A stretch of DNA of 64,000 nt from positions 1-64,000 of IMG/VR virus record IMGVR_UViG_2609459822_000013. One strand, 5' to 3'. The notes beneath the pieces are model-generated. The model searched no databases. It saw only the letters and a list, made by a program, of their open reading frames with translations, and was not told the origin of the DNA. This DNA comes from a virus. Taxonomy: Duplodnaviria > Heunggongvirae > Uroviricota > Caudoviricetes. The translations under genes and the position numbers were made by a program. This document shows positions 8,340-49,977 of this stretch, piece after piece. Each line of letters starts with the position of its first letter. Positions within the stretch are counted from its first letter, which is position 1.

Positions 8340-8987
8340 ATGAAAACAAAATGGTATGACTTAGCAAAGCAGCTCATGCGGGCGCAGGGCATGAGCCAGG
8401 ATTCACTAGCGGATCGCATGGGGATAACTAAAGGCGGTCTGTCACACTGGCTGAACGGTCGCCGCGAGCCAAATCTTGAAGATATTGCGCGGATTATGCG
8501 AGAGCTTGGTCGTCGGCAGTTCACTGTTACACATGATGGTATGGTCATTGATGATTCTGTTTCTAATACACTTCAGGCCGTGCCGCCGCGTGATTTAGGT
8601 AGTTACCCGGTTATTGACTGGAAGGACACAGTAAACAATATGGATGACGCAAGGCGTTCAGCATTACGACACGTTACGACTAGCGTTATTTGTTCAGATG
8701 ACAGTTACTGGCTGGTTGCCAAAGGTGAATCAATGAACGCGCCGCAGGGGTTGAGCATCCCGGCGGGGACGATGATACTTGTGGACCCGCACGCGCCAGC
8801 TATTGACGGCAAACTGGTTATAGCCCAGCTTGAGGAAGGGCAGATACCGACGTTTAAACAGTTGATTATTGATGGAGGTCAAAGGCTTTTACGTTCGCTC
8901 AATCCGCTGTATCCGCCAATCCCTATGAATCCAGAATCAAAAATTATAGGCGTGGTGGTTGATGCGAAGATCGTAAACCTGCCATAA
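8340..8987 (+). CDS. CI-type phage repressor (HTH + S24 LexA-like peptidase)
   Basis: 215 aa; N-terminal HTH (QDSLADRMGITKGGLSHWLNGRREP); C-terminal S24 motifs (AKGESMNAP...GTMILVDP). Confidence 0.85.
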   Translation: MKTKWYDLAKQLMRAQGMSQDSLADRMGITKGGLSHWLNGRREPNLEDIARIMRELGRRQFTVTHDGMVIDDSVSNTLQAVPPRDLGSYPVIDWKDTVNNMDDARRSALRHVTTSVICSDDSYWLVAKGESMNAPQGLSIPAGTMILVDPHAPAIDGKLVIAQLEEGQIPTFKQLIIDGGQRLLRSLNPLYPPIPMNPESKIIGVVVDAKIVNLP

Positions 8988-9096: not shown

Positions 9097-9110
9097 GTAT
9101 ACAAAATGGA
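9097..9110 (+). repeat. dispersed motif copy GTATACAAAATGGA abutting pL-like -35
   Basis: core ACAAAATGGA; immediately upstream of TTGACT. Confidence 0.55.
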
Positions 9111-38060: not shown

Positions 38061-40397
38061 ATGGATACCAGTGTAGGTACAATTTATTACGAAGTTGATG
38101 CGAAAACTAGTCAACTTCTCGTTGCACAACGACAGGCAGACCAGGCCTTTGGGCGTATAGAGCGCGGCGCAAAACAGGCTGACCGCCAGGTAAACACCCT
38201 GAAAACATCCATCAAGGCACTGACCAGGGTTATCCATTTGCTAATTGCTGCGGAGGCCGTGCGTCAATTCATGGATATGGCGGAGCAAGCAAAAATGCTT
38301 CGCGTAAAAATCAAAATGCTTACGGGCGATGCGGAGTCCGCCGGACGGGTTTTTGATGGCCTAAAAGCAATATCAAAAGAAACAGGCCAAAGCATGAAGG
38401 ATACCGGGGATCTGTGGCAAGGCTTAGCTATCTCACTGAAGAACACGTCCGCCACTGAAGGGCAATTGCTTAACCTGGTAGGTACGATTCAGAAAATGGG
38501 GGCGTTGGGCGGCGCGTCAGCTGAGCAGATGTCAAACTCAATGCGTCAATTCCGTCAGTCTATCGACGGTGGCGTGTTGCGTGCTGAAGAATTCAACAGC
38601 CTGTTAGAAAACACCCCGACCATCGTACAGACAATGGCACGCCAGATGGGGTTATCAATGGGCCAATTCCGCGCCGAAATGCTGGACGGTAAGATCACGG
38701 CAGAAAGGATGGTTAACGCAATCCAGGCGGCTACGCAGGAAACAAACGAGAAGTTTGCGCAGTTGCCGCGCACATCCGGCATGGCCCTGAATGAGCTTAA
38801 AGTCGAGGTTATGGGACTTGTTGAGCAATTGGATGATCTTTTCGGTGTATCCGATACGGTTGTTGCTGGTATCGATCTTGTAACGAAAGGTGTTAAGGCT
38901 TTAGGTGAAGGCGCTGATTTCGCTAAAACCTGCTTTAACACCCTGAAGACGGCTGGTGGCGAATTCATCGACATGTTTGAAGATGTCAGAATCAAGGCTG
39001 GCGAGGTAGCCGAGAAGATCATCGCAATGGTGACGCCAATCAAGGCACTAATGGATGCCTACAAATGGATGAAGGAGGTCGTAGGAGAGCAAACCGACGA
39101 ATATAACAGCAACTACGAGAAGAAATACGGTAAGACCGTTGGCAAGGTCATGCAACTACAGGATGATCTGACCGCAGCAATCCAGGCTACAGAAGAAGCA
39201 AGGAAAAATGAACAGAATGCCGCCAATGACGGAGCGATTACCGGATTCGAAAAGCCAGTAGACAAACCGAAAAAACAGAAAAAAGAGAAGAAATCTGAAG
39301 CTGATCGTCTTGGCGATAAAGGTATAAGCGTTTCTGACCAGTACAACAAAGACGCCGCCGCTATGCGCAAAGCGTTAGAGAGCGGCAAGGCCATTGATGC
39401 TGCATTCGCCCAGGGTAAAATCACTCTCCTTGAGTACCGCGCCGCGCAAAAAGGGATAGGTAAGGAACTAAAGGAAGAATTAGCACAAATTCCGGTAGAG
39501 GAATTGCGCGACAAATGGGAGCAAATAGTAAGCCCGATGGATCAGCTAAAGGGCGAAGTAGACCCTATTCAGCAGGTTCAAAATGAATGGGCCGTCCGTA
39601 AGCAAATGCTTATCGACCTGGGCGTGACGGAAGCGCAACAGAAACAGGAACTGTTAGCCTATGAGCAACAGATCCGCGATCTGAAGTGGGAGCAATGGCA
39701 GGCGCAAAGCGACACAAACAGCCTTATCGGTGATTGCGTTAATGGCCTTAAAGGTGGTATGAGCAATGCACTTGTTGGCCTGTTAAATGGTACTCAATCA
39801 TTGAGTGATGTTTTTGCTAACTTAGGCAGCAATATCCTCGGGAATATCGGTAACAGGCTTTCAGACATAGCTGCAAACTGGATAGCAGATCAGATCATGA
39901 TGGAAACGCAAAGCAAAGCGACTCAGGCAAGTACCACGGCGGGCGCGGTAGCGGCGCAAGGCCAGATTGCTGCGGCGGCGGCCCCGGCGGCGGCGGCAAC
40001 AGCGGCGTCAACTGGCGGCGCATGGGCGGCGGCTGGTTCTGCGGCACTCACTGCGATCATGTCGCTGGCTACGTCAATTTTTGGCGGCGGTCGCTTTAAT
40101 GGTGGTAGCGTCATTGGTGGCAATATGTACCGTGTAGGGGAACACAACAGGCCGGAGCTATTCCAGACATCTAACGGAAATCAATATATGATCCCTGGCG
40201 AGAATGGCAGGGTTATTCCTGGTCGTGACATTGGCGGTGGCATTAGTATGCCTGTCAATATCAACATTCAGACCACAAACGGATTTAGCGACGAGGACAG
40301 CCGCAGACTTGAGCAGACAATGGAACGTGTAGCAATGAAAATGATAACAAGGGAATCACAACGACCAGGCGGAATATTGCAACCTCGCCGCAAATAA
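38061..40397 (+). CDS. tail tape measure protein
   Basis: 778 aa, coiled-coil rich, Ala/Gly-rich segment, position before M-L-K-I-J. Confidence 0.8.
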   Translation: MDTSVGTIYYEVDAKTSQLLVAQRQADQAFGRIERGAKQADRQVNTLKTSIKALTRVIHLLIAAEAVRQFMDMAEQAKMLRVKIKMLTGDAESAGRVFDGLKAISKETGQSMKDTGDLWQGLAISLKNTSATEGQLLNLVGTIQKMGALGGASAEQMSNSMRQFRQSIDGGVLRAEEFNSLLENTPTIVQTMARQMGLSMGQFRAEMLDGKITAERMVNAIQAATQETNEKFAQLPRTSGMALNELKVEVMGLVEQLDDLFGVSDTVVAGIDLVTKGVKALGEGADFAKTCFNTLKTAGGEFIDMFEDVRIKAGEVAEKIIAMVTPIKALMDAYKWMKEVVGEQTDEYNSNYEKKYGKTVGKVMQLQDDLTAAIQATEEARKNEQNAANDGAITGFEKPVDKPKKQKKEKKSEADRLGDKGISVSDQYNKDAAAMRKALESGKAIDAAFAQGKITLLEYRAAQKGIGKELKEELAQIPVEELRDKWEQIVSPMDQLKGEVDPIQQVQNEWAVRKQMLIDLGVTEAQQKQELLAYEQQIRDLKWEQWQAQSDTNSLIGDCVNGLKGGMSNALVGLLNGTQSLSDVFANLGSNILGNIGNRLSDIAANWIADQIMMETQSKATQASTTAGAVAAQGQIAAAAAPAAAATAASTGGAWAAAGSAALTAIMSLATSIFGGGRFNGGSVIGGNMYRVGEHNRPELFQTSNGNQYMIPGENGRVIPGRDIGGGISMPVNINIQTTNGFSDEDSRRLEQTMERVAMKMITRESQRPGGILQPRRK

Positions 40398-40403
40398 ACA
40401 AAA

Positions 40404-40422
40404 CCCCGGCACAATGCCGGGG
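40404..40422. terminator. bidirectional terminator hairpin
   Basis: CCCCGGCACAATGCCGGGG with A-run upstream. Confidence 0.5.
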
Positions 40423-40436
40423 CTATCTTTATTCAA

Positions 40437-40608
40437 TTTCATCATTTTTAAATTCGCCGTTTGCATAAAGCTGTAATGCGCTTATCAGTTCGTCAGCTTG
40501 CTTTTTGTCTATTACAATCATCTCGCAGTCGCTAACGTTCCATAATCTTCCATCATCTTCAACACTAAGATCAATCCTTCTGCATTCTTCAGTCTCATGA
40601 ATAATCAT
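40437..40608 (-). CDS. moron: small acidic protein (57 aa)
   Basis: below ORF-track cutoff; MIIHETEECRRIDLSVEDDGRLWNV... Confidence 0.35.
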
Positions 40609-40936
40609 TATAAACCTTCATTATGTTATTAATTTTAGTGAATAAATTTACTCAAATCTTGTATACCCTCTTTCAATTTTCCCTCCGTGTACACTTCTGG
40701 CAAATACCGCGTCAGTATACCTAAAAAATGGGCATGTATATGTATCACCTTTACTATCCATCCATTTTAGCACCCATGCCATACGTTTTACATTGCTTTT
40801 ATTTGCCGGGTTTTTCATTTTATTTTCCTCCGCAAATTACAATCTTTCGTTTCTTGCTATATAGCTGCGAGAAAACATTACCAACCAAATATTCCAGATC
40901 TCCCTCCAGGTGAATTTATCGTCCTCCATACCCACC

Positions 40937-41191
40937 TCACTTATGGCAACCGCGAACGCCAGACAATTCATTGAATTTATGGTGTTCAACAATCACCCAC
41001 TCCTTCAGATCCTGGCTATAGACTCGCCAGTCTAAATTGGCGCGGAAGGCGTAGCCGTAACCGTCTTTCAATTTTTTGGGTGACGCATTCTTGTTTAAAA
41101 ACGCGTTCAAAAGTTCCTTTGCTTTTTTGACTGCATGCCCCGGCGCGTTTTTCTGTGCTTTCAGATTTTTGTCAATCGCTACCAGTTTCAT
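40937..41191 (-). CDS. moron: RelE/ParE-superfamily-like toxin candidate
   Basis: 84 aa; pattern KKLK...FRANLDWRVYSQ...WVIVEHHK resembles RelE/ParE. Confidence 0.4.
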   Translation of the reverse strand: MKLVAIDKNLKAQKNAPGHAVKKAKELLNAFLNKNASPKKLKDGYGYAFRANLDWRVYSQDLKEWVIVEHHKFNELSGVRGCHK

Positions 41192-41208
41192 AACTCACCC
41201 CATCATCC

Positions 41209-41364
41209 TTAGTTAAGTGCCTTCAGGAAGAAGTCCCGGTATTCATCTTCTTTTGCATTCATCATGAATTGACCGTATTTGAATGCGTCGTCGAAACCCT
41301 TAACGATTGCTATTTCCACTTGTTCGAATGCGTTGTTTAGCATTACCACTACATAGCGTTTCAT
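41209..41364 (-). CDS. moron: small protein upstream of toxin-like gene (possible antitoxin)
   Basis: 51 aa from ATG with perfect AAGGAGG RBS; 17 bp upstream of the toxin-like gene. Confidence 0.35.
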   Translation of the reverse strand: MKRYVVVMLNNAFEQVEIAIVKGFDDAFKYGQFMMNAKEDEYRDFFLKALN

Positions 41365-41435
41365 TTTGGGCCTCCTTCGTTGGTACTGCTTTTCTTCTTG
41401 CTTTCTGTATACATCTTGTTGCGAACTATGTGAAG

Positions 41436-41448
41436 CCATTTTGTAAAC
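41436..41448 (-). repeat. dispersed motif copy (reverse) GTTTACAAAATGG
   Basis: 13-mer exact. Confidence 0.6.
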
Positions 41449-41531
41449 TAGCTATAATCATTGTACTGAAGATCTCATTTTCGCGTAGAAGCGCGTAAAG
41501 ATATATACAAAATGTAACTTATGGGGGTTTT

Positions 41532-41885
41532 ATGCCGGAAGCTTTCAGATGGACGCCGCAAAGAAGCTACAGCGTGACCAGGGAGCCAAACGTATCTGTC
41601 ATTAAACTTGGTGATGGGTATGAACAGCGCCAGGCGAAAGGGATCAACACATTGCTTGATAGCTACACCCTGGTTTTTAAAGGCAGTAGCGCAGGATGCG
41701 GTGATGGTGGGAACGTGGCGATCCAGGCAGAAGCATTCTTGAGGGCGCGCGGCGCTAGCGAGGCTTTTTACTGGTCGCCGTCTATGGATGGCGTGCAAAG
41801 GCTTTTTGTTTGCCGTAGCTGGAGTATGACAAAGGACGGGCCTGTATACACGCTAAACGCAACGTTTGAGCAAGTTATTAATTAG
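41532..41885 (+). CDS. minor tail protein M
   Basis: 117 aa; matches recalled lambda gpM motifs (FRW, GDGYxQR, ...FEQVIN C-terminus). Confidence 0.8.
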   Translation: MPEAFRWTPQRSYSVTREPNVSVIKLGDGYEQRQAKGINTLLDSYTLVFKGSSAGCGDGGNVAIQAEAFLRARGASEAFYWSPSMDGVQRLFVCRSWSMTKDGPVYTLNATFEQVIN

Positions 41886-42077: not shown

Positions 42078-42085
42078 AAAAAACA

Positions 42086-42101
42086 CCCCGCCACGGCGGG
42101 G
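42086..42101. terminator. bidirectional terminator hairpin
   Basis: CCCCGC-CACG-GCGGGG flanked by A8 run and T-rich run. Confidence 0.55.
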
Positions 42102-42178
42102 TTTATAGTGTCGATAGCAGAATGCATGACAATCCAATAATGATAATGATCATTTCCAGAACGTAATGTTCGCACATC

Positions 42179-42427
42179 TCATAACGCCCCCTTCAAATAT
42201 GTCAATCCCTTATCAGTGACGAATGAGTGATTAACCTGGTTTTCATCCGTCATGATGATAAATAACTTTTCCTGTAGGTATTTCGCTTTAGGGTACAGCG
42301 TTAAGCAGACCTGGTACAGTATCCCGCGCTCAATCAGCAAATCAATAAATTCGTGTTCATGATAACCGATGAGGCGGGCGGCCTGTTTCAACGTGTACAC
42401 ATAATCACCGTGATTGCGCCGCCCCAT
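42179..42427 (-). CDS. moron: HTH-like small protein (82 aa)
   Basis: YTLKQAARLIGYHEHEFIDLLIERGIL. Confidence 0.45.
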   Translation of the reverse strand: MGRRNHGDYVYTLKQAARLIGYHEHEFIDLLIERGILYQVCLTLYPKAKYLQEKLFIIMTDENQVNHSFVTDKGLTYLKGAL

Positions 42428-42436
42428 GTTGCCGCC

Positions 42437-42784
42437 TTATTTATCGAATGCTGAAAGGTTATCGATACAGAAATCTTTCGCAGCTTTTTCGTATTCGCGT
42501 TTTGCTTCTGGATCGTCAGCCGGGAAACCTTTTGCGTGTATTTCACCAGGGCAAGACTGATCCATAGAGTCTGCAAAATTAACATTGAAGTTAACATTAA
42601 TATCTTTCGGGTTCATATCTTCCACCTCATCAACTATCTGTACCGGATTAGCAGTATATTTCACTGGATGGCCTAAACTACATTCAAGAATCCTGCCTTC
42701 TTCCAGGGCTACTTCTTCGCTATCAAATAATCCGAAACACTCCTTGCTACCACTTAACCACACATCAAGACTGTATTTTTTCAT
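42437..42784 (-). CDS. moron: hypothetical protein (115 aa)
   Basis: GAGG RBS; middle gene of 3-gene reverse operon. Confidence 0.45.
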   Translation of the reverse strand: MKKYSLDVWLSGSKECFGLFDSEEVALEEGRILECSLGHPVKYTANPVQIVDEVEDMNPKDINVNFNVNFADSMDQSCPGEIHAKGFPADDPEAKREYEKAAKDFCIDNLSAFDK

Positions 42785-42953
42785 TTTTGTTAGCCTCATA
42801 TTTGACAGGTTCGATCTGGTATCCCAAAAGGCGGTCATCCTCAGCAAGTAAAAGCGCGTCAACCAATGCTTCCCCCTCGTCGTCATACAGGGCGATAACC
42901 TTTTCCCTACCGTCTGTCATGAATACCGTCAACTTCCATAGCTTTTCAGTCAT
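42765..42953 (-). CDS. moron: small acidic protein (62 aa)
   Basis: GGAGGTG RBS; first gene of operon. Confidence 0.4.
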   Translation of the reverse strand: MTEKLWKLTVFMTDGREKVIALYDDEGEALVDALLLAEDDRLLGYQIEPVKYEANKNEKIQS

Positions 42954-42967
42954 AACGCACCTCCGCG

Positions 42968-42980
42968 CCATTTTGTTAAC
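42968..42980 (-). repeat. dispersed motif copy (reverse) GTTAACAAAATGG
   Basis: core CAAAATGG. Confidence 0.5.
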
Positions 42981-43081: not shown

Positions 43082-43786
43082 ATGCGCAATATTCCGAGAG
43101 AGATGATTATTGATTCCGTCGATGCCGGAGTTGGCGCGGTCATTGACTTATTTGAACTGGACCTTACTCCCCTGGGAGGCGAGGTTATCCGCTTCCATTC
43201 CGGCGCGAACGGCTATTACGGCCAGGTTATCTGGAAGGGAGTAGCTTACAACAGCTACCCGATCGAGGCGACGGGCTTCGAAATGAAAAATGAGGGTGTT
43301 TATTCACGGCCTCAAATGGTTGTAGCCAATATCGGCGGACTCATTACGGGGATGAACAACGATTTTAACGACCTTAGAGGAATGAAGGTTACGCGCCGCC
43401 AGGTGGAGGTGAAATATCTTGACGCCGTTAACTTCCCTAACGGTAATCCAGACGCAGATCCATCTATTGAGGCTGTATCTTTTTACGTCGTTGAAGCAAT
43501 GAGCGAAGAAACAGCGGATCAGGTGCAGTATGAACTGTCAACGCCAATTGATGCAGATAAAGCTGTCATCCCTGGGCGCACCATCCTTGCTGACGTTTGC
43601 CAGTGGCAATACAGAGGCGACGGGTGTATGTACGCTGGCGGACCAGTAGCAAACGATAAAGACGAGCCGACAAGCGATCCTAAAGCCGACAGATGTAGCC
43701 ACCGTCTGAGCGGTTGTCGTTTACGTTTCCCGCGTCCAAATCCGTTACCAATTTCCTGTTTCCCCGGTTCAAGTAAGGTGGGCTAA
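43082..43786 (+). CDS. minor tail protein L
   Basis: 234 aa; matches recalled lambda gpL motifs (RFLDAVNF.NGN..ADP, Cys-rich C-terminus). Confidence 0.8.
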   Translation: MRNIPREMIIDSVDAGVGAVIDLFELDLTPLGGEVIRFHSGANGYYGQVIWKGVAYNSYPIEATGFEMKNEGVYSRPQMVVANIGGLITGMNNDFNDLRGMKVTRRQVEVKYLDAVNFPNGNPDADPSIEAVSFYVVEAMSEETADQVQYELSTPIDADKAVIPGRTILADVCQWQYRGDGCMYAGGPVANDKDEPTSDPKADRCSHRLSGCRLRFPRPNPLPISCFPGSSKVG

Positions 43787-48000: not shown

Positions 48001-49977
48001 ACAAACCTTAAAGGTCAGATCTCTAATGTGCAACGCGCAGTAGCTGACGAGGCCAGCGCCCGCGCTGAAGCTATTAACGGTGTAAATGCCTCAATAAGCA
48101 ATCTTGACAAGAAAACTGACGCCAGCGTAAACCGTCTTGATCAGGCAATTGCAGACGAAACAAGTGCGCGTACTCAGGCTATCAGCGACGTGAACGCAAG
48201 TATCTCAACACTTGACAAGAAAACTGACGCCAGCGTTAAGCGCCTCGATAATGCAATATCAGATGAAACGCAGGCAAGAAGCGACGCAATAACAGTGGTT
48301 AAAGCTGATTTAACAACGCTTGAAAATAACACAAATGCCAGTGTTAGCCGTCTTGATCAAGCTATCGCTGATGAATCAAGCGCACGTGCTCAGGCGATAT
48401 CAGGTATCAGCGCGACGCTTGGCGGCGTTAAAAGTGAGGTTGATAAAAACAGCGACGAGATAGATCAGGCGAAAGCAAGTCTGCAAAACGCATCTCTGGC
48501 GCTTATTAATAACTCAATGGCGCAAAGCAAGATGAGCACTGTTATTGAGGCGAAATACAGGAAAGGACAAACAAAAACAAAAGCGGAAATAGCAAGGGTA
48601 GACACAGCAATCGCAGATGAGGCGAGCGCACGCGCAGAAGCTATTAGCAACGTTAACGCCAGCGTCAGTAGTCTTGAAAGCAAAACCGACGCGAGCGTTT
48701 CCCGTCTTGATAAAGCAATCGCAGATGAGGCGAGCGCACGCGCAGAAGCTATTAGCGGGGTTAATGCGTCAATTTCCACGCTCGATAGCAAGGTGACAAG
48801 CAACGTAACCAGGATGGATAAAGCGATCGCAGATGAGAAGAATGCACGCACTGACGCAATCAGCAGCCTTAACTCATCGCTTACCAGTACGATTAATTCG
48901 AAAGTATCCGAAGTGTCAACTGCACTTTCTACGCATGAAACATCAAGCGCGGAAAAATTTGGCCAGATCTCGGCATCTTTCGACGATGTAAACTCAAGCA
49001 TCACGGAATGGTCACAGGCTATGGCAACGGCAGACGAGGCATTGTCAACCAGAATCGACCAGTTGAAAGTAACTATTAACGGAAACACAACGGCGATAGA
49101 AACGACATCAAAAGCACTGACTGACTTCAAAGGTAACGTTGATGCGTCATATTCAATTAAGATTGCCACTGATAAAAACGGTATGAAATACGCTACAGGA
49201 ATGTCGCTCGGCCTTACTGGTAGCGGGACTAACGTTCAATCGCAGTGTATTTTCCTCGTTGACCGTTTCGTGCTTATGACTGCGGCAGGTGGCTCCTATC
49301 AGACCCCGTTCTATGTTACTAACGGTGCTTGCTACATCCGTGATGCGTGGATCAGAGACGCATCAATCACTACCGCGAAGATTGCGCAGCAAATTCAGTC
49401 AACCAACTATAAAGCTGGTTCGGCTGGCTGGATGCTAAATAAAAACGGCAATGCGGAGTTCAACAACGTCACTGTACGCGGTACGGTGTACGCAACATCT
49501 GGTAAATTCACTGGTGAGATTCAGGCCACAAGCGGGAAGTTTAAAGGTACAGTAGAGGCAAAGTCATTTGTCGGTGACGTTGCTAACATGGGGGTTGGTC
49601 CAGATCGAGTGCTTGGGCATAACGGAAGTTATAGCGCAACCATCACATATAAAGACAGCACGGATAATGCATTGACGAAATCAGTTATGCTTATGGCGAC
49701 TATTTCATTAATGTCTGGTGAATATAGATCCACTTATAACGTAACGTTTAGTTGCGGAGATAAAAACAAAACAATTTCATATTACGTGCCTTATGGTGGA
49801 TGCACATTAACAGTGCAATGCGCTTTTTCTGGTTTAAAAGCATCAGATATTATCGGGAAAATATATTGTCCTCAAACATCATCATCTGAAGGATACGCAT
49901 ATTGTACCGCGTTGTATTCTCCAACAATGATAGTAGCAAGAGGCACCGGATCATTTAGAACATCAACGACAGCATAA
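45007..49977 (+). CDS. host specificity protein J (central tail fibre), extended with coiled-coil repeat insert
   Basis: 1656 aa; position after I; internal tandem repeat arrays. Confidence 0.8.
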   Translation: MSSGGGKAKTPTLLNDNLYHKQFYRVLDILSEGPIYGPVNQKAPLNDVMLNDTPVTDANGNTSIPGISIAWRNGTADQSPINGFNAIESTVIVNAKVTHDTPIIRTVSDPNVTRVRLNLGVDALVQSDEKGNQYNTSVMLMVDVKPSSSSTWSLIKDIHIGPGKQSGEYLEAHIIKAPDEKPFDIRVRRITPDSNGDLLRNDTRWSSYSEIIDDNLSYPHTAVAGAVIDHDQYTDTPTRTYHLRGLIVDVPDNYNPETRTYSGLWLGGFKKAYTNNPAWLFRYLVKNERFGLARHAGYIDVDDGALYVLSQYCDQLVDDGYGGLEPRMTLNAYITEQMSARDLLDNIAGMFRGIALWDGQRLTVMIDAPQDPIATITNANVVDGAFTRSSIARAECYNAVIVSWTDPENGWEQSKEYVADDKLIARDGYNETTLEAFGCTSRGQAHRAGKWLIETAKREPSKFTFKMARDAIHFTPGDIIEILDNNRAGARLGGRIVANNGRAITVDKVDSEYIAAGDTISLLDSDGKFKKHQIIGVNGNIITLAAAPAWIRNGTVFAVSTNAAKPVLCRITSVAETENNSVYTIEAAQHDPHKQAVVDNGAIFEINNDTLNHFRVPNIENLKVLNVGSETVQCRATWETQTTTRRLTFEIRVYNAEGAVVKSYETTNYSYDFYGIDAGNYSLGIRGRNDTGMKGAESIVDLVIGAPAAPVGVNWVPGVFQATVYPISRTTLTTDTSYEFYYSGETQITDPASITTKAQYTGRGHQWTFGGMNTGHTYYVYVRARNAFGVSDFVEASGKPTENFDEITDYVTKDVMNSKQFKEMVGDIKDLGDRTDLIESATNDLKTATDNLKTATDNLTNITDDLRTETDNLTIETGSIKADTDTLKKETEDLYKKVKENADDIGQHESRIDSLEVSSEKVGSELAQAKASLQNASLALINNSLAQTNTRVTLTAQYKKGRTETKAEIDRIDNVIAEEKKATAESLETITAEMNVMDTNLKGQISNVQRAVADEASARAEAINGVNASISNLDKKTDASVNRLDQAIADETSARTQAISDVNASISTLDKKTDASVKRLDNAISDETQARSDAITVVKADLTTLENNTNASVSRLDQAIADESSARAQAISGISATLGGVKSEVDKNSDEIDQAKASLQNASLALINNSMAQSKMSTVIEAKYRKGQTKTKAEIARVDTAIADEASARAEAISNVNASVSSLESKTDASVSRLDKAIADEASARAEAISGVNASISTLDSKVTSNVTRMDKAIADEKNARTDAISSLNSSLTSTINSKVSEVSTALSTHETSSAEKFGQISASFDDVNSSITEWSQAMATADEALSTRIDQLKVTINGNTTAIETTSKALTDFKGNVDASYSIKIATDKNGMKYATGMSLGLTGSGTNVQSQCIFLVDRFVLMTAAGGSYQTPFYVTNGACYIRDAWIRDASITTAKIAQQIQSTNYKAGSAGWMLNKNGNAEFNNVTVRGTVYATSGKFTGEIQATSGKFKGTVEAKSFVGDVANMGVGPDRVLGHNGSYSATITYKDSTDNALTKSVMLMATISLMSGEYRSTYNVTFSCGDKNKTISYYVPYGGCTLTVQCAFSGLKASDIIGKIYCPQTSSSEGYAYCTALYSPTMIVARGTGSFRTSTTA

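Follow-up and report, generated by a model that had tools for sequence, protein, structure and literature searches.

The DNA analysed here (the window) is a 64,000-nucleotide (nt) stretch of a virus of the Caudoviricetes, positions 1 to 64,000 of the IMG/VR record IMGVR_UViG_2609459822_000013. Between its tape measure gene and its M-like minor tail gene lies a moron, an accessory operon of small genes read from the opposite strand; its second gene encodes a protein of 84 amino acids (aa) with the features of the RelE/ParE toxin superfamily. Five small minus-strand open reading frames (ORFs), of 51, 84, 30, 56 and 59 aa, follow one another in that order; the features of the operon, with ribosome-binding sites (RBS) and isoelectric points (pI) where relevant, are as follows.

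41209..41364, minus strand: 51 aa gene, first in the operon, with AGGAGG 6 nt 5' of the ATG (phrog_29810)
40937..41191, minus strand: 84 aa gene, starting 17 nt past the 51 aa gene (Pfam PF24732; phrog_1525)
40837..40929, minus strand: 30 aa gene (MEDDKFTWREIW...), its RBS overlapping the stop codon of the 84 aa gene
40648..40818, minus strand: 56 aa gene (MKNPANKSNVKR...), a basic protein of pI 9.9, variable cargo
40429..40608, minus strand: 59 aa gene, an acidic protein of pI 4.25 (phrog_13627), at the 3' end of the operon
40402..40424, both strands: bidirectional intrinsic terminator, a hairpin scored by the terminator scan on both strands

The moron architecture proposed in the initial annotation proved to be real. 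The locus is an autonomous unit between conserved genes, with a terminator, a deviant base composition, a variable presence and an inferred promoter, as is characteristic of phage morons. The terminator at 40402-40424 is common to the tape measure gene (plus strand) and the moron operon (minus strand), and ARNold terminators have been annotated at the equivalent place in the phages mEp010 and mEp515; together with a copy of a dispersed motif at 41436-41448 it flanks the locus, as had been described. With a GC content of 0.40, and 0.36 in a part once taken for a spacer, the locus is poorer in GC than the tape measure gene (0.50); its GC skew is inverted, consistent with minus-strand coding. An extended ORF of 76 aa, starting from the ATG at 41439, was discarded, as the reading frame of the leader is disrupted in relatives by 1-nt indels and stop codons. 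The comparison covered about 70 related phages overall: the 51 aa protein as query retrieved 41 IMG/VR loci and 23 metagenome loci (64 in total), and a profile of the 84 aa protein retrieved 44 IMG/VR loci. Cargo content is variable, with 16 architectures among 41 loci.

The RelE/ParE-like pattern that had been noticed in the 84 aa protein holds: the ORF and the quoted motifs are present, and the Pfam match, the profile matches and a confident structure model all agree. The protein matches PF24732 (ParE_like) with 29.7 bits (gathering cut-off 24.4; E=6.3e-7) as well as PHROG 1525, and several homologues are labelled "ParE family toxin-like protein" in RefSeq (PGAP), the fold assignment being already implicit in the Pfam and RefSeq annotation. 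No match was obtained in NCBIfam or PADLOC, no homologue was found on plasmids, and no paper naming PF24732 was found in the literature. Close homologues are confined to the mEp-type phage group, and this subfamily differs from other PF24732 proteins in its conserved C-terminal tail, GV(R/K)G(C/A)HK, and in its fixed position in the moron between the tape measure gene and M. An exhaustive profile search led to about a dozen distant families and a second, indexed search enlarged the set to 28 sequences, the most distant of them at about 25% identity; all the homologues found carry the PF24732 domain. The median ratio of nonsynonymous to synonymous substitution (dN/dS) is 0.065 for the 84 aa gene and 0.035 for the 51 aa gene. 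Both are real genes, as these low values indicate strong purifying selection, and the ratio for the 84 aa gene shows that it is selectively maintained.

A structure prediction with AlphaFold2 (AF2) on 12 close homologues gave an unusable model, with a mean predicted local distance difference test (pLDDT) of 45.7, and the alignment of 28 sequences was used instead, yielding a pLDDT of 84.8 and a predicted template modelling score (pTM) of 0.73. The model consists of a beta-hairpin (residues 3-13), a helix (18-32), three strands (47-69) and a C-terminal helix (70-77), and it has the compact alpha/beta arrangement of the RelE/ParE superfamily, in which an N-terminal helix packs on an antiparallel sheet of three to four strands. 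Foldseek against PDB placed Staphylococcus aureus YoeB at the top (probability 0.98, TM score 0.48), followed by RelE, YoeB/ParE, HigB and YafQ, while BFVD gave as its best matches phage proteins labelled "ParE-like toxin domain", from the Yersinia phage fHe-Yen9-04 and the Klebsiella phage RaK2 (query-normalised TM scores of 0.69-0.77). In the Foldseek search of PDB and in a second fold search, the ParE matches were placed below YoeB, RelE, HigB and YafQ. Likewise, the family profile run against PDB sequences found YoeB best (E=0.14), not ParE, and hhalign aligned the family to E. coli YoeB with E=0.013 and gave no alignment with RelE or RK2 ParE (all three reference sequences entered by hand). 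The PDB profile search and hhalign agree on the register, in which PKKLK..WRV falls on PEPLK..HRLVY of YoeB.

The hallmark strand of the superfamily, basic-x-[VI]-[GN]-x-x-[YW]-R-[LIV]-[LIV] with its conserved arginine, is present, reading SIRVGNRYRLL in distant members and FRANLDWRVYS in the window protein. The arginine, R56, is the sole invariant residue among the 28 sequences and aligns to YoeB R65, while K40, H70 and N74 are widely conserved across the family down to about 25% identity. The catalytic residues are E46, R65, H83 and Y84 in YoeB and K52, K54, R61, R81 and Y87 in RelE; R56 would also correspond to RelE R61, as judged from the RelE sequence and not from an alignment. The position of the YoeB catalytic Glu46 is taken by Lys39 in the window protein and by Lys, Arg or His across the family. 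The conserved H70-x-x-[YF]73-N74 and the C-terminal H83-K84 are present, out of the YoeB register, and position 73 is Phe in the window allele and Tyr in most family members.

YoeB, from the YefM-YoeB type II toxin-antitoxin (TA) pairs of E. coli and S. aureus, and the mRNA interferases RelE, HigB and YafQ are thus the best profile and fold matches of the 84 aa protein. With YoeB it shares the succession of a helix, P-x-K-L-K and a beta-strand with the invariant Arg in [WY]-R-[LIV], as well as a small size (equally 84 aa), a basic character (pI 9.9) and conserved His and aromatic residues near the C-terminus. It differs in having, in the model, one N-terminal helix after a beta-hairpin instead of a helical hairpin, in the Lys aligned to Glu46 and in match scores that are only moderate; moreover, unlike in the YoeB, RelE and HigB systems, no YefM/Phd, RelB or HigA-type antitoxin gene adjoins it. 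On the profile matches and the predicted model, we place the 84 aa protein in the RelE/ParE superfamily with high confidence, and we infer that it leans towards the RNase-type branch (YoeB/RelE/HigB) rather than to ParE proper.

The reading best supported by the comparative material is that this protein works on its own as an effector of the YoeB/RelE kind, that its gene is part of the mosaic cargo of the moron, and that the 51 aa gene often accompanies it but can be dispensed with; we give it about an even chance of being correct. Two phage contigs of 53 and 57 kb (L121 and L125, the latter from an isolate genome) hold an intact type-C allele of the 84 aa gene directly behind the usual leader and putative promoter, and have no 51 aa gene. 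Since two of the 44 contigs retrieved with the toxin profile thus lack the 51 aa gene, and since in the chromosome of E. coli MFDS1019527 the 51 aa ORF is frameshifted and broken at codon 6 next to an intact 84 aa ORF (re-initiation at Met8 being possible), the ever-present adjacent antitoxin of a type II system is not found here. Nor is the expected co-variation of the two partners, as an identical 51 aa protein accompanies three alleles of the 84 aa protein that are 62-68% identical to each other. Between the allele classes the synonymous divergence (dS) is saturated for the 84 aa gene and 0.11-0.16 for the attached 51 aa genes. A sharp mosaic or recombination junction lies near 41155, within the 84 aa gene at about its codon 12. 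On one side of it, phages mostly agree at 90% or more in the promoter, the 51 aa gene and the initial 12 or so codons of the toxin-like gene; the remainder of that gene shows 53-66% identity between the three allele classes. The three alleles are anciently diverged, and the toxin-like gene, its 51 aa neighbour and the remaining cargo behave in these comparisons as separable modules. Finally, homologues of the 51 aa protein are missing from the nearest outgroup, P0071 (48% identity), and from the wider family.

Several observations weigh against a stand-alone effector. Proteins of the RelE/ParE fold are overwhelmingly toxins of type II TA systems. The 51 aa gene lies 17-24 nt upstream of the 84 aa gene in 42 of the 44 viral contigs retrieved with the toxin profile, and the pair constitutes the entire moron in 14 loci. 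On the side of the 51 aa gene, the sole clean single-gene locus is L093, where a 54 aa homologue stands alone and is followed by a terminator, and truncation of the 84 aa gene beside an intact 51 aa gene is seen in E. coli PAR; this asymmetry fits TA logic, the cases being few and not decisive. In both loci with the 84 aa gene only, the 30 aa gene follows, so that an alternative neutraliser is possible. Furthermore, catalysis is uncertain, given that YoeB Glu46 is aligned to Lys.

The 51 aa protein itself, which starts MKRYVVVMLNN, is mildly acidic (pI 5.1) and has no DNA-binding domain. The perfect RBS claimed for its gene is there (AGGAGG, 6 nt upstream of the ATG), and so is the lack of resemblance to a classical antitoxin, as searches of Pfam, NCBIfam and PDB linked it to no family of antitoxins. 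Indeed, neither the protein nor its family alignment has a relative in Pfam, NCBIfam, PADLOC or PDB; it belongs to an orphan family (PHROG 29810), and neither a known antitoxin family nor a ribbon-helix-helix, helix-turn-helix, AbrB or Phd/YefM domain, as borne by type II partners, was recognised in it. A ribbon-helix-helix identity was considered and rejected, since it has no support in Pfam or PDB and the N-terminal strand is all hydrophobic, as was paralogy with the first gene of a neighbouring moron, described below (BLASTP E=7.9).

The first of the rival explanations is a minimal type II TA cassette, in which the 51 aa protein would bind and neutralise a basic 84 aa toxin and serve prophage addiction or abortive infection. 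It is suggested by the gene order, with the small gene first and the toxin-fold gene second, 17 nt apart and under a common promoter and terminator, and by the complementary charge of the products (pI 5.1 and 9.9). All 64 loci retrieved with the 51 aa protein have the 84 aa gene 17-37 nt downstream, and the distance is 17-24 nt in all except L083, a spacing outlier that is the L045 contig with a variant N-terminus; the 42 of 44 contigs, the 14 loci with the pair alone, the toxin truncations and the locus with the 51 aa gene only count on the same side. In addition, ParE/RelE toxins are known with antitoxins unlike the known families (PMC3141249), and PaaR2-PaaA2-ParE2 of the cryptic prophage CP-933P of E. 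coli O157:H7 is a precedent for a prophage-borne TA system (PMC8630535). The latter is the closest TA analogue, as it also has a prophage-borne RelE/ParE-superfamily protein after a very small protein without a DNA-binding domain; the present locus differs from it in that the 51 aa protein is not similar to PaaA2 and is dispensable, no regulator gene adjoins, and ParE2 stands low among the fold matches. Against this explanation stand the two phage genomes with a toxin allele, an intact promoter and no 51 aa gene, the E. coli chromosome with the frameshifted 51 aa gene beside an intact toxin-like gene, the single 51 aa sequence found with three toxin alleles, the missing match to an antitoxin family and the missing homologue in P0071 and the wider family. 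We therefore consider the cassette unlikely. As for the unconventional TA module that had been suggested for this locus, its only support is synteny, and against an obligate pair speak the 84 aa gene without the 51 aa gene in two genomes, the 51 aa gene alone in another, the absence of co-variation and the absence of an antitoxin family; such a module is possible, though not the best-supported reading.

PF24732 genes are also found well beyond this phage group. They occur in lytic phages (Sortsne, Kc237, IME279, RaK2 and fHe-Yen9-04), in T7-like early regions beside the RNA polymerase gene, in large phages of 100-140 kb, and beside BrxR, Tn7 TnsA/TnsB or an AlpA-type element. Many of the distant genes are directly followed, often with an overlap, by an ORF of about 90-98 aa without a Pfam match (L014 2501-2984; L062 593-1076; L007 2501-2997; L059 2001-2527; L015 2501-3030; L065 2495-3018), and together they may form a two-gene module with the toxin first; several such pairs lie beside the BrxR, Tn7 TnsA/TnsB or AlpA-type elements. 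These followers were rejected as a single family, since no mutual homology was found except between two close relatives, and known antitoxins are not matched by any of them. None of the PF24732 neighbours examined does so either, and the unrelated followers, together with the absence of a 51 aa homologue in P0071, leave a family without a recognisable conserved partner.

The second rival explanation is that the protein has the RelE fold and is no nuclease, acting as a non-toxic accessory factor that binds the ribosome or RNA, for example as an A-site decoy blunting a RelE-type abortive infection of the host. Such a factor would explain both the carriage in lytic phages and the missing obligatory antitoxin. 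Solo carriage in prophages and lytic phages, Lys, Arg or His at the position of YoeB Glu46, and Phe at position 73 of the window allele, where most members have Tyr, are consistent with it; the invariant R56 and the widely conserved K40, H70 and N74, which resemble an active-site signature, argue in the other direction, and a decoy activity is purely conjectural. The explanation is accordingly held to be rather improbable. As to a true ParE-type gyrase poison, which the Pfam and PGAP names would imply, there is little likelihood of it: the two fold rankings given above and the PDB profile search favour YoeB over ParE, hhalign yields no alignment with RK2 ParE, the protein with its 84 aa falls short of the ParE chains that were matched by fold (87-93 residues), and ParE toxins carry a longer C-terminal segment.

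Concerning the rest of the operon, the initial annotation had described a 330 bp AT-rich non-coding stretch after the 84 aa gene. The AT-richness is confirmed (GC 0.36) and the non-coding character is not, as the stretch (328 bp, 40609-40936) holds the 30 aa and 56 aa ORFs, which are conserved as genes and subject to purifying selection. The annotations of mEp010, mEp515 and MagusPhagus include the two; the former recurs in 22 related loci with a ratio of nonsynonymous to synonymous polymorphism (pN/pS) of 0.11, and the latter in 19 with a pN/pS of 0.18. The small-RNA locus that had been suggested for this spacer was discarded in consequence of the two conserved proteins encoded there and of an Rfam scan of the region in which no family reached the threshold. 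The protein at the 3' end is acidic, as claimed (pI 4.25), and has 59 rather than 57 aa. Its gene is present in 16 of the 41 loci, independently of the other cargo and of the toxin-like gene and its alleles, on which grounds it was rejected as the antitoxin. The 30 aa peptide was likewise rejected as a constant partner of the 84 aa gene, as it is missing from the 14 loci with the pair only and from others. The 56 aa protein matches no family in Pfam, NCBIfam, PHROG or PADLOC, and none of the five moron proteins has a match in PADLOC-DB v2 at E values up to 1; the role in abortive infection or lysogenic conversion that had been suggested is a conjecture. Other cargo among the 41 loci, mixed with the 30, 56 and 59 aa genes, includes a 95 aa membrane-like protein and an HNH endonuclease. 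By their distribution, the 30, 56 and 59 aa genes come and go independently as mosaic cargo.

The expression of the operon would depend on the region upstream of the 51 aa gene, which contains the following elements.

41406..41434, minus strand: putative sigma-70 promoter, -35 TTCACA (41434-41429), 17 nt spacer, -10 TATACA (41411-41406)
41436..41448, minus strand: copy of the dispersed motif GTTTACAAAATGG, immediately 5' of the putative -35 and conserved in related loci
41473..41509, minus strand: upstream element TTTACGCG-N4-TACGCGAAAA, with TACGCG repeated in direct and inverted orientation, almost unchanged across 35 haplotypes

The promoter was spotted by eye and was not called by a consensus scan. 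Both hexamers and their 17 nt spacing are kept in the 35 haplotypes, with a variable spacer sequence, and the -10 reads TATATA in most relatives (TATA(C/T)A overall); the hexamers are also kept in loci without the 51 aa gene or without the 84 aa gene. On this conservation, the moron would have a sigma-70 promoter of modest quality in TTCACA/TATA(C/T)A, with a predicted transcription start near 41399. The element at 41473..41509 is a possible binding site for a regulator. It can be summarised as TTTACGCG-N4-TACGCG-AAAA and is partly palindromic, and a second copy is found at 28738-28774, between the genes of the terminase large subunit and the portal. On the plus strand, a perfect TATAAT (41453-41458), about 75 nt 5' of M, is invariant in the 35 haplotypes with variable flanks, and M and the downstream tail genes may have a promoter of their own, overlapping the dispersed motif.

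Allowing up to 2 mismatches, the 13-mer GTTTACAAAATGG has 13 sites in the window, where 3.3 would be expected (3988, 8254, 9097, 13243, 14217, 16567, 16635, 26332, 37980, 38009, 41436, 42968 and 50408). Two of the sites flank a CI-like repressor gene (8340..8987, HTH_3 and Peptidase_S24), and the one at 9097 adjoins a TTGACT-N17-TATATT promoter; two others head the two minus-strand tail morons, and 16567/16635 and 37980/38009 form inverted repeats. The motif may be an operator or another regulator site; inspection by eye for a promoter or an operator gave no consistent geometry. The second reverse-strand moron (42179-42980), between the small gene after M and L, has a GTTTACAAAATGG copy at its head (42968-42980) and a terminator at 42085-42102, and it codes for an 82 aa protein, whose RefSeq homologues are annotated as KilAC-domain antirepressors, and two small proteins showing a beta-beta-alpha-like pattern.

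Reverse-oriented morons have been described in other phages. The phi80 moron taiEcA/atiEcA has been presented as a 'noncontiguous operon' for which antisense regulation is proposed (PMC11364771), and, like it and HK97 gp15, the present locus is an opposite-strand accessory operon in the late or tail cluster, with its own terminator, low GC and variable content; it differs in that its proteins are unrelated and have no PADLOC match. The putative moron promoter is directed against the late operon, and transcription reading through from the late genes would be expected to shut it down, on the model of noncontiguous operons.

As a stand-alone effector, the 84 aa protein would target translation and need no dedicated protein antitoxin, and its control would be exerted mainly by the timing and strength of the moron promoter. 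The 51 aa gene, usually first in the slot, is dispensable, and its product may modulate the 84 aa protein. By way of a tentative extension to the whole family, PF24732 could represent a phage-borne branch of the RelE/YoeB fold without a dedicated antitoxin, acting as an RNase that shuts off host translation or as a non-cleaving A-site decoy against RelE-type abortive infection, and gated in mEp-type prophages by antisense late transcription and perhaps by a GTTTACAAAATGG-binding factor.

The region is 82-96% identical to mEp010, mEp044, mEp515, mEp013, mEp554, mEp021 and MagusPhagus, and by this similarity the window belongs with the Nus-dependent temperate coliphages, and prophages, of the mEp-immI (mEp021-like) group. 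The genome paper on this group (PMC11893012) makes no mention of the moron locus, the dispersed motif or any operators. The conserved genes around the two morons are the following.

38061..40397, plus strand: tape measure gene
41532..41885, plus strand: M-like minor tail gene
43082..43786, plus strand: L gene

In E. coli GF66.2 (L002 1-2596; NZ_CP172145.1) the tape measure gene directly adjoins a TagO gene associated with the type VI secretion system, and thus the prophage appears to be truncated on the head side, the moron and the tail genes being kept. Further along the window, 48031-48875 contains direct repeats with a period of 108 nt (4-6 copies, 60-90% identical); this is probably a gene of the tail fibre type in which a coiled or collagen-like segment is repeated.

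Prophage genes of the RelE/ParE fold are routinely filed as TA or abortive-infection modules on the basis of gene order alone. Either way, the present case concerns one uncharacterised accessory gene of a small coliphage group, whose region is present in 35 of 5426 complete E. coli genomes. Should the 51 aa protein neutralise the 84 aa protein, it would be among the smallest antitoxins known. If, on the other hand, the 84 aa protein acts without an antitoxin, the RelE fold would be used here outside classical TA systems, for example in host shut-off, defence or counter-defence, and this would be a caution against the automatic annotation of PF24732 genes as TA modules.

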